Source: a virus
DNA length: 64,000 nt
IMG/VR virus record: IMGVR_UViG_3300031576_000021
Coordinates: 24,218-88,217 of that record
Direction: 5' to 3' (one strand)
The notes beneath the pieces are model-generated. The model ran no database searches, was not told the origin of the DNA, and saw only the letters and a list, made by a program, of their open reading frames with translations. Below, in pieces: positions 23,350 to 31,851 of this stretch (the first letter of the stretch is position 1; every line of letters starts with the position of its first letter). Both the position numbers and the translations under genes were made by a program.

Positions 23350-24588
23350 ATGACGACGACATGGCAGAGTCGAATTGTCGAGCACGGCGAGGTCGATCCG
23401 CGTCTGCTCATTCCGCATCCGAAGAACTGGAAGATTCACCCAGCGTTCCAGCGGGCGGTCATGGGCGATGCGCTTAGTGAAGTAGGGTGGTTGCAAACGG
23501 TTGTGGTGAATCGCCCGACGGGAAACATCATCGATGGGCACATGCGCGTGCAGCTCGCGATCGAAGGTGGAGAGCCAACAATCCCTGTCACCTACGTGGA
23601 CCTGTCCGCACATGACGAAGCCAAGGCCCTGGCGCTCTTCGATCCAGTCGGCGCGCTCGCTCGCGAACACAACCCGATCATGGAGGAACTGATCAGGCAG
23701 GTGGATACGGATAGCATCAACATTCGGCGGATGCTCGATGCGTATGGACAACCAGCCCTGAAGGCGGGACAGACAGACCCCGATGATGTCCCAACGGCCA
23801 CCCGGCGCATCGTGCAGCCCGGGGACGTGTGGCAACTTGGCGAGCACCTCCTCTTGTGTGGGTCGTGTGAACAGTTGGGCTCCGTCGTCCCACCCGAGAC
23901 TGCCACGCTTCTCGTGACCGATCCTCCCTATGGCGTGTCATATGGCGACAAGAATGCGTTCTTGAATGCGATTGCCCCGGGCAATCGCATTCAAGAGCCC
24001 ATCGAAGGAGACCATCAGACACCTGATGAGATGAGTGTGCTCTGGCGTGCCACGTTCGGCGCCATTCGCTGTCTGCTGGCACCTGGGGCGGCCTATTATG
24101 TCACGGGTCCGCAGGGCGGCGATCTCCTCCTCCTCCTCCTCCTCCTCCTCCTCCTCGCACTTCGCGACTCCGGCTTTCCGCTGCGGCATATGCTGGTGTG
24201 GGTCAAGAACGGGCATGTCTTGGGTCGTAGCGACTACCACTACCAGCATGAGCCGATTCTCTACGGATGGGTCGACGGAGGGGCGCATCACGCAGTCGCG
24301 GATCGTTCAGAGACGTCCACATGGTTCATTCCCAAACCGCAGGTCTCCGAGCTTCACCCGACGATGAAGCCCGTGGCCTTGTGGGCACGGGCCATCCAGA
24401 ATAGCAGCGATGAGGGTGGGACGATCGTTGATCCGTTTCTCGGGAGCGGCACGGCCTTCATTGCGGCTGAGCAAACTCACCGACGATGTGTCGGTGCCGA
24501 GATCAGTCCGGTGTACTGCGATGTGAGCATTCAGCGCTGGCAGTCATTCACCGGCCAGGTGGCGACGAGGGTAGCCCATGGCGGATGA
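23350..24588 (+). CDS. ParB-N domain plus N6A/N4C DNA methyltransferase (beta class)
   Basis: IIDGHMR ParB motif; TDPPY, HPTMKP, DPFLGSGT. Confidence 0.9.
   Translation: MTTTWQSRIVEHGEVDPRLLIPHPKNWKIHPAFQRAVMGDALSEVGWLQTVVVNRPTGNIIDGHMRVQLAIEGGEPTIPVTYVDLSAHDEAKALALFDPVGALAREHNPIMEELIRQVDTDSINIRRMLDAYGQPALKAGQTDPDDVPTATRRIVQPGDVWQLGEHLLLCGSCEQLGSVVPPETATLLVTDPPYGVSYGDKNAFLNAIAPGNRIQEPIEGDHQTPDEMSVLWRATFGAIRCLLAPGAAYYVTGPQGGDLLLLLLLLLLLALRDSGFPLRHMLVWVKNGHVLGRSDYHYQHEPILYGWVDGGAHHAVADRSETSTWFIPKPQVSELHPTMKPVALWARAIQNSSDEGGTIVDPFLGSGTAFIAAEQTHRRCVGAEISPVYCDVSIQRWQSFTGQVATRVAHGG
24124..24156 (+). repeat. Perfect (CTC)11 microsatellite encoding poly-Leu
   Basis: Counted directly in the sequence. 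Confidence 0.95.
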
Positions 24589-28721: not shown

Positions 28722-29192
28722 GCGTGATCCTGTGCGTGGCGGTAGTGACGGCTGCGGCCGTGTGGTGGGCAGCGCGATGATCCTGGCTAAGCGCGAGACC
28801 ACGATGGGCATGGGCGTCACATGCGGACTCAAGTCGGTTGGCGAGGGGCGCGTCTATGACGTCGCGCCATTGGTATCTGGTATTCAGCACGCCGCGCGGC
28901 ATCCTGCGGTACGCTGGGTCGATCACGCAGGCGAACCGAGCCGTGCTCGAGCGTAAGCGCAGCCTCACGCTCCACGTCTGGTGCTGTCCTAATTCGGCGT
29001 GAAGTGTCCTAGTATGCGCGCCCATCGGCATGGACCCGATGGGCGACATCTCGGCGGAGCTGCTGACGGCCGACCAGATTGAGCCGGCGGGACTATCGGC
29101 AGACTTTCACGGGGTCTTTAGACGCCTCTCCTTATCACGCCATTCCGGGAAGCCAGGGGTGCTGTCCTACTTAGGACACTCCCGCATCGAAA

Positions 29193-30158
29193 TTAGGACA
29201 GTCCCCCCTTGATGACCCGCAAGTGGTTCGGGCGCGGTCCTCGCGGCCCGCGGAAGCTCCCCCGCCGCTCGCCCTTCGCCTGCGCGGCGGTGGACCCTGC
29301 CGGGATCGGCGCGGGCGCAGTCGGCTCCGGTGCCTCGAACGCGGCGTGCAGTAGCTCGGCGATCGACCACACGTGATCCGTCAGGCCCGCCTCCATGGCG
29401 GGAGTACACCGCAGCGTCTCGTGGACGCGGCAGAAGTTGAAGTGGGCGACGAACAGCCCCACGGCTGCTTCCAGGTTCCGCAGCCGCTTCGAATGCGAGA
29501 TGGTCAACCGGGCGAAGCGCTTGAGCGACACGCGCACCGACAGATTCAGCCGCTCGCTGTAGGACGTGCTGATTTCCCCCCAGGCCGGATCGCCCAACAC
29601 GGCAGTCTTGGTCACGCGACTGATCTTGCCGGGCGAGTAGCGCAACGCGGCCTGCTGCGCCTGGGGCACCGTGTAGTCCTTGTCCACGGTGCCGAAATCC
29701 ACGTCGGCGCCGAAGTGCCGCGAGATGGCCTCGGGGTAGCCGTTCCATGCGTCGGTGCTGATCTGCGGACGGCCCAGCACCCGCAACCGGAGGTCCTGCG
29801 CGAACGCGTCGGCGTTGTCGCCCGTGCGCTTCCCGACCCGGTACGAGAGAATGAGCTTGGACACCGCGTCCATGGCGAGAAAGACGTACTGGTCGCCGTA
29901 CTCCCTCGGGTCGTCCTGCCGAAGCCGGCGCTGCTTCTTCTGCACGAACGTCCATAGCTCGTCGGCCTGGATGAGCGTCGCGCGCACGTCCCGCACGCGG
30001 GCATCGTGCAGCCGGGCGCACGCTTCGCCCACCGTGACGCCCAGCCGCATGATCGTGTCCCGGTGGACATCGAGCAGCCGCTCGGCCGCCCGAATGCTCA
30101 CGCCGTCCACGAGGGCTGCGGCGACTTGGGCTTTCTTCTCAAATGGCAGCGTGTGCAT
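29193..30158 (-). CDS. IS1-family DDE transposase with N-terminal HTH
   Basis: GVSIRAAERLLDVHRDTIMR; QADELWTFV, ISTDAW, STSYSERLNL, FNFCRVH, TPAM. Confidence 0.9.
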   Translation of the reverse strand: MHTLPFEKKAQVAAALVDGVSIRAAERLLDVHRDTIMRLGVTVGEACARLHDARVRDVRATLIQADELWTFVQKKQRRLRQDDPREYGDQYVFLAMDAVSKLILSYRVGKRTGDNADAFAQDLRLRVLGRPQISTDAWNGYPEAISRHFGADVDFGTVDKDYTVPQAQQAALRYSPGKISRVTKTAVLGDPAWGEISTSYSERLNLSVRVSLKRFARLTISHSKRLRNLEAAVGLFVAHFNFCRVHETLRCTPAMEAGLTDHVWSIAELLHAAFEAPEPTAPAPIPAGSTAAQAKGERRGSFRGPRGPRPNHLRVIKGGLS

Positions 30159-30163
30159 GGGGA

Positions 30164-30229
30164 CATTTGTAGCTACAAACGCGCCACAAGTCAAGGGGTG
30201 GACTTCACGCCCATTTGTCGCTACAAACG
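30164..30229. promoter_or_regulatory. Divergent leaderless promoters with two palindromic operators TTTGT(A/C)GCTACAAA
   Basis: Palindromes at 30166-30179 and 30214-30227 each overlap a TACAAA -10; minus TTGACT-17-TACAAA-7-ATG (transposase), plus TGGACT-17-TACAAA-6-ATG (RHH). Confidence 0.75.
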
Positions 30230-30233
30230 GTTC

Positions 30234-30407
30234 ATGCCACGTCGCAAGGTCAAGGCCGAACGTAAGGAAGCGGTTGTCCGGTTGCGGGTGACGGAGGAAC
30301 AGCGCCGCATGTTGTTCGCGGCAGCCCAGCACGCCGGGTTGGAGTTGAGCGCCTGGTTGCGTTCACTTGGGTTGCGGGAGGCCCGCCGAATCGAATCGTC
30401 CGCGTAG
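30234..30407 (+). CDS. Ribbon-helix-helix protein (MobC/DUF1778-like)
   Basis: VVRLRVTEEQRRML..AA...GLELSAWLRS. Confidence 0.8.
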   Translation: MPRRKVKAERKEAVVRLRVTEEQRRMLFAAAQHAGLELSAWLRSLGLREARRIESSA

Positions 30408-30561
30408 GGGGGGGGCTTGCGGTCAAGGCTCGTGCGGATTAGGTGGCAGGGTCGCCGCCTGAAACCCTAAGCGCTTGGCTGACTTGGGTGCGTCTTGGGT
30501 ATGGCCTTGATCGCGGGAACGCGATAGGTAGGCCAAAGAGGGAAGAGAAGAGCCCCTTGGC

Positions 30562-30653
30562 GGCGAGGTGTGTGAGCCAGGTTGAAACAGTCGGACTCAA
30601 AATCCGGTGAGCGCTTACCCGCTCCGTCCGTTCGAATCGGACCCTCGCCGCCA
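30562..30653 (+). tRNA. Class II tRNA, anticodon CAA (Leu), with serine-type body
   Basis: Acceptor GGCGAGG/CCTCGCC, G73, encoded CCA; D stem TGT/ACA; anticodon arm TCGGA-CTCAAAA-TCCGG; variable stem GAGCG/CGCTC; T arm GTCCG-TTCGAAT-CGGAC. Confidence 0.9.
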
Positions 30654-30737
30654 AGGCGCTTTTCTCTCGGTACGTGCCCCTTCTGCCCCTGCGCCAGCAT
30701 GTGCTGCGTGCAAGCTGGCAGCGCGTGCTAGCTATCG

Positions 30738-30770
30738 CATCTATTGGCCTGTTGCCGTCCTTGTGTCAAG
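30738..30770 (-). promoter_or_regulatory. Candidate promoter pointing antisense across the tRNA
   Basis: CTTGACACAA on the minus strand (30770-30761) followed by ...GGC like the other copies; -10 is weak. Confidence 0.45.
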
Positions 30771-31014
30771 CTGCGCTTGACTAGCCCGCGACCAACGGTC
30801 GCGCATGCTTGTTCGTGTTCCAACGCATTTCCCTAGGCTTAGCGGCGACCGTTCAACTTAGGACACTGGTTCATTCGACTTAGGACAGATAGCCCCTAAT
30901 TCGGACAGCGTCAAGCCAGGCACCCGTTTGGGGCATTGGGGGGGGCTTGATCAATTGCGGTGCTTGATTAATTGTTAAGGGCCCCATATGTAGGGGGGGC
31001 AGGCCGCAGGGGCA

Positions 31015-31221
31015 CTAGGGGGTCCAGGGAGGGGCCGTGGGGAAGTTGTAGGATTCGTAGCTCTGAGAGGCCGGATATTCCCCGACGATGCGTACTTTCG
31101 CGGCATGGCGCGATGCGGCCTCAAGCGATCGCGCCACACTCGCGTCGCGCCTCGTGCCATCCAGCTCGATGAAGAACATGTACGTTTCCGGCTGCCCGTG
31201 AACCGGCCTGGAGATGATCAC
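31015..31221 (-). pseudogene. pheA: 3' fragment of prephenate dehydratase (ACT domain)
   Basis: IISRPVHGQPETYMFFIELDG...D..V..SL...KVRIVGEYP matches PheA ACT consensus IESRP...YxFFIDxxG...LGSYP; no N-terminal part. Confidence 0.75.
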
Positions 31222-31596
31222 GGAGGAGCTGCGTCTCGACGTCAAGCTCGCCCTGGTGGGCCATGATCGCGGCAGGATCAACGGGCCGCGCGGGGAATCG
31301 GTGCGTCGGATGAACACGACATCGACAGCTCGACGACGACAACCTCAACGGAGGACATATCTGGACGATTGCCGAGCTGGCGGACGCGGCCCTGACTGCG
31401 TCCGACGCCGACGCCGCTCCCCACGCCAGATCAGCAGACGTTCCCCGGCATGAGCGCGGCACAGGCGAAGAACGATCCGAAGGGCGTCACGTTGCGGCGG
31501 CTCCGCCTCACGATAATAAGGGGCGGGCGGAAATGAAGACACGACGCGCGAGTGTCCTACTTAGGACAGCACCCCACGTCTATGGGGACGTGCGGT

Positions 31597-31851
31597 ATGG
31601 GTGACGACCAGCTCCTCTATCGCGGACTCGGCGAGCGTCACGACGAGACGCACGAGTTCATCCGCAAGCGGATCGAGCTGGGGCTGTCCGTGGAAGGAGC
31701 CGCGCGGCGCATGGGACTATCGCCCGATGTTGTCGAGGCACTCGAAGCGGGCAATCTCGTGTGCCGGGACGCGGACGGCTGGAAGCGGGTCCTGGCCCTG
31801 CTCGACGATCCCGAGGCCGAAGACTTGACACAAGACGAGAGAACCGGCTAG
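31597..31851 (+). CDS. XRE-family HTH protein
   Basis: IRKRIELGLSVEGAARRMGLSPDVVEALEAG. Confidence 0.75.
   Translation: MGDDQLLYRGLGERHDETHEFIRKRIELGLSVEGAARRMGLSPDVVEALEAGNLVCRDADGWKRVLALLDDPEAEDLTQDERTG

Follow-up and report, generated by a model that had tools for sequence, protein, structure and literature searches.

A serine-type tRNA with a leucine anticodon carried by an IS1-family element in a phage genome

Herein, we describe a long-arm tRNA gene with the anticodon CAA in a 64,000-nt stretch of phage DNA (hereafter the window; positions 24,218 to 88,217 of the IMG/VR virus record IMGVR_UViG_3300031576_000021). Judged from its sequence, the tRNA has a serine-type body combined with a leucine anticodon that reads UUG. 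It is the cargo of an intact, recently moved insertion sequence (IS) of the IS1 family, which is nested in an older relative in the phage genome. We consider it probable, though far from secure, that the gene encodes an intact tRNA of serine identity that would be charged with serine and would decode the leucine codon UUG. The coordinates of all features are collected in Table 1.

The tRNA gene and its fold

ARAGORN detected this gene as the only tRNA of the window, and also as the only one of the whole 88,217-bp contig, with the anticodon at 30598-30600. Rfam RF00005 matched positions 30562-30650 with 47 bits, against a gathering threshold of 29 (E = 4.2e-9), when a region of 401 nt was searched. 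A scan of the whole window in gathering mode listed no tRNA despite this score, which is taken as an effect of the speed filter, because long-arm tRNAs can drop out that way.

Both programs gave a canonical cloverleaf of the elongator tRNA family, with a 7-bp acceptor stem and a 5-bp T stem. This is the normal 7/5 fold described in the first-pass annotation, an earlier reading made from the sequence alone, and every sequence feature of the tRNA listed there was found on direct reading. The acceptor stem, GGCGAGG/CCTCGCC, holds the pairs G1:C72, G2:C71, C3:G70, and G4:C69; it is followed by the discriminator G73 at 30650 and by a CCA that is encoded in the DNA. The D stem is formed by 3 bp (U10-G11-U12 with A23-C24-A25) plus G13/A22, and the D loop reads A14 G15 CCA G18 G19 UUG A21, which places a G at 20b. 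The anticodon stem is perfect over 5 bp, including G30:C40, and closes the 7-nt loop CUCAAAA. U44 is followed by a 5-bp variable stem (GAGCG/CGCUC), with C48 directly after it, and the T arm reads GUCCG-UUCGAAU-CGGAC. The universal core bases are all present (U8, A14, G18G19, A21, U33, A37, G53, UUC at 54-56, A58, and C61). Folds of the 8/4, 9/3, and selenocysteine (Sec)-like types were considered and rejected, since the extra pairs lie beyond positions 1 and 73 and would give 9/5 or more.

Serine or leucine identity

The reference genomes, which hold relatives of the neighbouring transposase, were two metagenome-assembled genomes (MAGs) named 'delta proteobacterium' and one Acidobacteriota MAG. 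From aligned long-arm tRNAs of these three soil genomes, comprising 11 tRNA-Ser and 14 tRNA-Leu, two covariance models were built here and used as isotype models. The window tRNA scored 77.4 bits with the Ser model and 34.9 bits with the Leu model, although the CAA anticodon favours the latter. Held-out true tRNAs were all sorted correctly by the two models: a tRNA-Ser (L067) scored 84.3 bits on Ser and 26.3 bits on Leu, and two tRNA-Leu scored 51.9 and 87.7 bits (L138) and 35.6 and 85.5 bits (L045), respectively. As for plain identity, the window tRNA was 55-70% identical to all 17 serine or serine-like tRNAs and 39-54% identical to the 14 tRNA-Leu, with no overlap. Its closest reference was a tRNA-Ser(CGA), identical at 62 of 88 positions, and CGA differs from CAA by one base.

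The same distinction was seen at single positions. In all 11 reference tRNA-Ser, G73, G15, and C48 are present and the variable stem runs directly into C48; in all 14 reference tRNA-Leu, the bases are A73, A15, and U48, and a single unpaired purine separates the variable stem from position 48. In Table 1 of Giege and Eriani 2023 (PMC9976931), the bacterial serine determinants are G73, C72, G2-C71, R4-Y69, C11-G24, a large variable region, and G30-C40, and the same source describes serine identity as independent of the anticodon. The window tRNA carries six of these seven, namely G73, C72, G2-C71, R4-Y69, G30-C40, and a variable-region junction of the serine type, as in 11/11 reference tRNA-Ser. 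On the leucine side, G73 and G15:C48 stand in place of A73 and of the A15:U48 of the reference set. The first-pass annotation had proposed a serine body with a leucine anticodon and had predicted that isotype models would prefer Ser over Leu. Both were borne out, with models built here, by the two scores, the six of seven serine determinants, and the lack of A73.

The IS1-family carrier

The tRNA lies inside an element with the inverted ends GGTGCTGTCCTACTTAGG and CCTAATTCGGACAGCGTC, and on either side of this element stand identical 8-bp copies of AAGCCAGG in direct orientation (29150-29157 and 30913-30920). Thus, the tRNA is enclosed by IS1-type inverted ends and a perfect 8-bp target duplication, as expected of the IS cargo that the first-pass annotation had suggested. 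The intact element, with its perfect duplications, appears to have moved recently. This inner element is itself enclosed by an outer one with a duplication of its own, CCACGTCT, whose two 8-bp copies lie in direct orientation at 28972-28979 and 31574-31581. All that this outer element contains besides the inner IS are the decayed remains of a transposase, seen as weak, collinear matches to the transposase C-terminus at ~31356-31530 (+; best E 0.03 by tblastn). Because nothing but these remnants lies outside the inner IS, we regard the outer element as a decayed relative that was entered by the intact IS. The repeat TTAGGACA occurs six times in the 64-kb window, with 0.25 copies expected, and all six lie within 28985-31568. 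In silico excision of the outer element gave an open frame of 129 codons across the joint, versus 50 codons before, which is compatible with the outer element having landed in a gene.

From one end to the other, the inner IS consists of an end, the transposase gene (-), a 75-nt gap, a gene for a ribbon-helix-helix (RHH) protein (+), a 154-nt spacer, the tRNA (+), about 200 nt, two copies of TTAGGACA, and the other end. The transposase gene accounts for 966 of its 1,755 bp. Of 8000 sequences scored, 4130 were homologs of the transposase at E <= 0.001, and many were named IS1 family transposase in their source. IS1-family elements have inverted ends of the GG...TG type and duplicate 8 bp of the target. 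The inner element has the DDE_Tnp_IS1 transposase, terminal inverted repeats, and an 8-bp duplication, and in these respects it is like the single-ORF (open reading frame) IS1 family; inverted ends and an 8-bp duplication are found at the outer element as well. Unlike a typical IS1, it carries the divergent RHH gene and the tRNA as passengers. No relatives of the transposase were found in the viral contig set, and megablast of the region against plasmids and phages gave no match.

Table 1. Coordinates of the features in the window
Feature	Positions	Strand	Evidence
Type II tRNA, 92 nt	30562-30653	+	ARAGORN, Rfam, Ser/Leu covariance models
Inner IS1-family element, 1,755 bp, intact	29158-30912	-	inverted ends 29158-29175 / 30895-30912, 14/18 matched
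Outer element, 2,594 bp	28980-31573		inverted ends 16/18 matched
IS1-family transposase gene, 321 aa, intact	29193-30158	-	Pfam DDE_Tnp_IS1
RHH gene, 57 aa	30234-30407	+	Pfam NikA-like, 32.4 bits (cut-off 27)
18-nt near-palindrome, two copies	30164-30181, 30212-30229		repeat search
25-nt inverted repeat, 92% complementary	30544-30568 / 30643-30667 (span 30544-30667)	+	repeat search

TTG codons in the adjacent regulator gene

The RHH gene has the same orientation as the tRNA and lies 154 nt upstream of it. TTG makes up six of its seven Leu codons, compared with 5 of 30 in the transposase gene of the element (Fisher p = 0.0012), 7 of 26 in four RHH orthologs (L010, L001, L003, and L082; p = 0.008), and 16% in the 68 long high-GC3 ORFs of the phage (nominal binomial p = 1e-4). 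The six TTG sites correspond to Leu in the orthologs, except for Val or Met at three of them in L003, and judging by the alignment these positions fit the hydrophobic core of the protein. This bias is a hint that the tRNA may indeed decode and that the regulator may be tuned to it. Two comparable cases pointed in the same direction without being significant: in L003, the TTR share was 3/6 in the RHH gene versus 4/25 in the transposase gene (p = 0.11), and in L091 and L094 together, the GTA share was 6/12 in the helix-turn-helix genes versus 15/51 in the transposase genes (p = 0.19).

A private reassignment of TTG to Ser in the genes of the element was considered and rejected, given TTG on invariant Leu of the transposase and at conserved Leu positions of the RHH protein; two of the five TTG codons of the transposase sit on invariant Leu columns. 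As the element has not reassigned TTG, serine inserted at its TTG codons would be an error.

The TTG-rich RHH gene could also be read the other way, with the window gene as a working tRNA-Leu(CAA) carried by the element or the phage to boost UUG decoding, notably in the RHH gene. The CAA anticodon speaks for it, as does the high TTG share in the adjacent gene at positions where the orthologs have Leu, and tRNAs of phages and mobile elements are often divergent. We nevertheless regard it as highly improbable. The window tRNA has G73 rather than A73, G15:C48 rather than A15:U48, G2:C71 rather than C2:G71, and a variable-arm junction of the serine type, whereas 14/14 reference tRNA-Leu are in the leucine state at 73, 15, and 48. 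The Leu model gives 85-94 bits on true tRNA-Leu, versus 34.9 for the window tRNA. Moreover, PMC9976931 (Tables 1 and 3) gives A73 as a determinant of leucine identity in each of the three domains, and it counts the G73 of tRNA-Ser among the antideterminants against leucyl-tRNA synthetase (LeuRS) and tyrosyl-tRNA synthetase.

Relatives and other tRNA cargo of IS1 elements

To look at the carrier more widely, scans were made with an alignment of the transposase and its closest homologs; of >900 loci matched, the 160 covered here come from MAGs and metagenomes of soil, peat, groundwater, and similar sources. The tRNA-side end of the inner IS (30855-30909) was 73-77% identical to ends in L002, L090, L091, and L094, and the terminal GGTGCTGTCC together with GTGTCCTAA repeats was readable in L002, L091, and L094. 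L091 and L094 both have a serine-like long-arm tRNA placed between this IS end and the transposase gene, with an order and orientation matching those of the window. The L091 tRNA scored 71.6 bits on Ser and 33.8 bits on Leu and has a 6-nt anticodon loop holding UAC; the L094 tRNA scored 75.8 and 46.5 bits, respectively, with the anticodon UAC. Both have G73. Serine-like tRNAs with G73 were also found just upstream of the transposase gene in L007 (anticodon UAC) and adjoining an IS end in L084 (anticodon GCG). ORFs of 158-208 aa with no Pfam match lie beside these cargo tRNAs (L094:2842-3468, L091:2976-3506, L007:3188-3664, and L084:5349-5843), and they may represent a shared partner protein that is absent from the element of the window. 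The RHH orthologs in L010, L001, L003, and L082 are divergent from the transposase gene, and the RHH gene thus belongs to the regular equipment of this IS clade, with the tRNA as an optional passenger.

Across the 160 loci, ARAGORN placed 18 tRNA-like genes in the 500 nt upstream of a transposase gene; 17 of the 18 share its strand, and 10 end 134-141 nt before the transposase start. Just downstream of the transposase genes, 131 kb of sequence yielded two. In an alignment of 16 of these sequences, which form a cloverleaf, six of the seven acceptor pairs and all five T-stem pairs were kept in 16/16, with compensatory changes at all but one pair, and the anticodon stem was broken in up to 5/16. 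The upstream set on the same strand with class I bodies comes from L009, L011, L015, L018, L022, L031, L057, L058, L065, L072, L081, L084, L087, L108, L110, L125, and L049. It includes odd anticodons (ACA, ACU, UAC, and GCU on a class I body) as well as 6-nt loops. Among the Methylocella/Beijerinckiaceae copies, L015 has a different tRNA-like sequence between conserved flanks. Some of the upstream genes resemble the 'irregular tRNAs' described in the main text of Mukai et al. 2017 (G-1 with GGU; class I with GCU).

Closer relatives of the window tRNA itself were not found. Pattern scans of viral contigs with three exact stretches of the tRNA gave none, blastn against phage records returned only 34-nt T-arm matches to Ralstonia phage tRNAs, and BLAST in 301 genomes of the phylum of G001, a genome of the sampled set, reached at best 77% identity over ~60 nt. 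The lack of a conserved CAA relative in the viral contigs and the 301 genomes would suit a passenger relic, that is, a copy of tRNA-Ser(CGA) that was picked up by the IS, underwent a G35A change, and is now silent or decaying. Its anticodon is one base from CGA, the closest reference is a tRNA-Ser(CGA), and the sampled genomes do contain serine-like copies in decay, such as L184 with its broken acceptor stem. Such a relic is improbable in our judgement: all stems of the window tRNA are whole, the intact element has perfect duplications and moved recently, the codon bias of the RHH gene suggests co-adaptation, and the relatives retain non-serine anticodons on serine-like bodies.

The hairpin around the tRNA

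The 25-nt inverted repeat lengthens the acceptor stem by about 18 pairs, so that G73-CCA is paired with the 5' leader, and a T-rich run comes after it. The folding energy of the 124-nt stretch 30544-30667 was -65.6 kcal/mol (z = -6.59; 0 of 200 shuffles as good). The stem extension is absent from the four serine-like relatives L007, L084, L091, and L094. According to the predicted fold, the leader/trailer stem may act as a terminator, serve as a double-strand processing site, or lock the tRNA in an immature state. A search for an antisense partner was made with RNAduplex between the tRNA and 40-nt windows of the other non-coding parts of the element on both strands; none stood out, the best duplex, at -39.3 kcal/mol, being within the shuffled background (1% level -40.0).

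An alternative is that the gene encodes a non-translational, tRNA-shaped RNA serving the IS. Such an RNA might signal processing or termination where the RHH transcript ends, have a regulatory function, or be a toxic RNA that the stem restrains. The 25-nt repeat and the T-rich run agree with this alternative. So do the frequency of tRNA-like genes near IS1 transposases (18 within 500 nt upstream among the 160 loci, with 17 sharing the strand) and the cargo alignment, in which acceptor pairs (6/7) and T-stem pairs stay intact in 16/16 and the anticodon stem breaks in up to 5/16; most allo-tRNA(UAU), as suggested in the main text of Mukai et al. (PMC5389517), are not used for translation. On the other hand, a mere structural signal would have no need of a perfect anticodon stem, a 7-nt loop with U33 and A37, the core tertiary bases, and an encoded CCA, and the TTG bias next door is a pointer to a role in decoding. 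We therefore regard this alternative as possible, though rather unlikely.

A proposed role in mistranslation

A gap of 75 nt (30159-30233) separates the start codons of the transposase and RHH genes, which are divergent. Both near-palindromes in this gap overlap a TACAAA hexamer located a few bases ahead of a start codon, and a TTGACT or TGGACT hexamer lies 17 nt further upstream in each case. To the eye, the gap looks like a pair of divergent, operator-controlled promoters that would give nearly leaderless messages. A consensus scan for sigma-70-like promoters on both strands of 30100-31000 found none. As no other promoter was seen, the tRNA would be co-transcribed with the RHH gene from this region. 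It would then be matured out of the long hairpin and charged by the seryl-tRNA synthetase (SerRS) of the host, which is blind to the anticodon. Competition with tRNA-Leu(CAA) at UUG would result in Leu-to-Ser substitutions, and the RHH protein, with six UUG codons at conserved leucine positions, would be most exposed. The loading of the RHH gene with UUG suggests that the tRNA may act on the regulation of the element itself in addition to the host proteome.

Several points weigh against serylation and UUG decoding. No covariation or conservation supports the window tRNA, because no relative of it was found. Its D stem is odd (U10:A25, G11:C24, U12:A23), and C3:G70, which the first-pass annotation had already called less typical of tRNA-Ser, occurs in 0/11 reference tRNA-Ser. 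The G11:C24 pair also departs from the serine determinant C11-G24; the same pair is present in the tRNA-Ser(CGA) of G001 and G002, so the C11-G24 rule is not universal in these taxa. Since tRNA-Tyr scores 65-73 bits on the Ser model, the models separate Ser from Leu and do not by themselves separate Ser from Tyr; G73, C34, and A35 argue that the window tRNA is not a tRNA-Tyr. The rules for SerRS and LeuRS are general bacterial ones, assumed for the host, and may not be those of the host. By the predicted pairing, the leader may hold the CCA and the discriminator in a way that blocks RNase P or keeps the RNA as an inactive precursor. A good fold is no guarantee of use either, because six allo-tRNA(UAU) variants built as amber suppressors were inactive in E. 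coli translation (Mukai et al. 2017, PMC5389517, main text). A leucine-inserting tRNA is the simpler fit to the TTG-rich RHH gene, but it is contrary to every identity feature. Finally, a single run was listed as holding this DNA, a DNA run of a cave metagenome, and no RNA run was listed.

A more specific use of a seryl-tRNA(CAA) can be imagined. With the RHH repressor and the tRNA on one transcript, the matured tRNA would put serine into the hydrophobic core of the repressor and cripple it. The transposase gene and the RHH-tRNA operon would both be derepressed, and mistranslation would become a bistable trigger of transposition through a switch that sabotages its own repressor. In general form, IS1-type elements would carry odd tRNAs that act on codons in their own genes. 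We regard this elaboration as quite improbable.

The RHH protein also gave a sub-threshold match to the TacA antitoxin (18.9 bits versus a cut-off of 21). The partner toxin of TacA acetylates charged tRNAs. The likeness to TacA is probably a general RHH likeness.

Comparison with known systems

Irregular serine-type tRNAs of soil bacteria were linked to a transposon-related ORF and to toxin-antitoxin loci in the main text of Mukai et al. (Nucleic Acids Res 2017, PMC5389517), and the comparison with allo-tRNAs made in the first-pass annotation is thus an apt one. Like allo-tRNAs (PMC5389517; review PMC7609411), the window tRNA is a serine-type tRNA with a long variable arm and a non-serine anticodon, and both derive from uncultured soil-type bacteria. 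Unlike them, it has a 7/5 fold, where theirs is a 12-bp acceptor branch split 8/4 or 9/3. It is thus not an allo-tRNA by definition; its extra pairing lies outside the mature ends, between leader and trailer. An IS1 carrier with ends and target duplications is not named in the passages of Mukai et al. 2017 considered here, and Supplementary Figures S5-S7 of that paper may bear on the link.

The tRNA-Ser(CAG) of the yeast CUG-Ser clades, as summarised in PMC11415595, likewise combines serine identity with a leucine anticodon, which is possible because the anticodon is not read by SerRS. Its origin is a tRNA-Ser gene whose anticodon changed. That case is eukaryotic and chromosomal, with a fixed reassignment of CUG, whereas the present one concerns UUG and a bacterial mobile element in a phage, and the genes of the window element still need Leu at TTG. 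The same source describes tRNAProX of Streptomyces and Kitasatospora, natural bacterial tRNAs in which body and anticodon are mismatched and mistranslation is encoded. They differ in their proline body, their Ala, Asn, or Thr anticodons, and their class I structure, and the passages on them considered here (PMC11415595) mention no transposon carrier. The nev-tRNAs, nematode-specific V-arm tRNAs (PMC3333845), are class II like the window tRNA, with anticodons that correspond to neither Leu nor Ser; unlike it, they are eukaryotic nuclear genes.

Therefore, a serine body with a foreign anticodon is already known from allo-tRNAs and yeast tRNA-Ser(CAG), with tRNAProX as a proline-body analogue, insofar as these sources describe them. 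New relative to this literature are the canonical fold with a Leu anticodon, the defined IS1 carrier with exact ends and duplications, and the phage location, together with the same passenger position in related elements and the TTG-loaded regulator. No paper on tRNA cargo of IS1 elements was found in a literature search that covered main articles.

Natural tRNAs with mismatched body and anticodon are rare, and they are raw material of genetic-code change and of regulated mistranslation. The window tRNA travels in a small IS1 element that was mobile recently and can therefore pass from genome to genome, here into a phage. An active tRNA of this kind could allow a transposon to disseminate a Leu-to-Ser decoding error by horizontal transfer. 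With its load of TTG codons, the neighbouring regulator offers a concrete, testable link between the tRNA and the control of the element, and through the carrier the 'irregular tRNAs' of soil metagenomes, so far unexplained, are connected to a defined family.

Phage setting and assembly

The virus record is a single contig with 66% G+C. Matches to phage families near the tRNA include a DNA methyltransferase with a ParB domain and a HerA/terminase-like ATPase. A 681-aa phage protein searched by tblastn against phage records gave three distant matches, none with a named bacterial host. A second assembly of the cave-metagenome run, a Logan contig of 79,281 nt with a depth of ~16.7, was identical over 28800-31800 (3,001 nt) and reads A at 30599. 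As this other assembly of the same run is identical, CAA is not an error of the assembler of the record. That run is probably the source of the record, and hence the second assembly does not count as independent data. Contigs with an empty site or a variant were not seen in that run.

Other long-arm tRNAs with unusual anticodons

Some further long-arm tRNAs were noted in the sampled genomes and loci. A chromosomal one, L172 (G001:C3:191335-191419), scored 77.9 bits on Leu and 51.1 bits on Ser and has A73 with the proline anticodon UGG. The serine-like L184 (G002:C2:798641-798724; Ser 71.5 and Leu 30.3 bits) carries the phenylalanine anticodon GAA, and its acceptor stem is mismatched at the top; it is possibly a decaying copy. 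Two others, L024:3344-3429 and L135:1982-2070, lie near IS1 transposase genes and have variable arms that are alike. One of this pair carries UUA, which reads the ochre codon, on a leucine-like body, and the other has the anticodon UAU and an 8-bp acceptor stem, similar to allo-tRNA(UAU).

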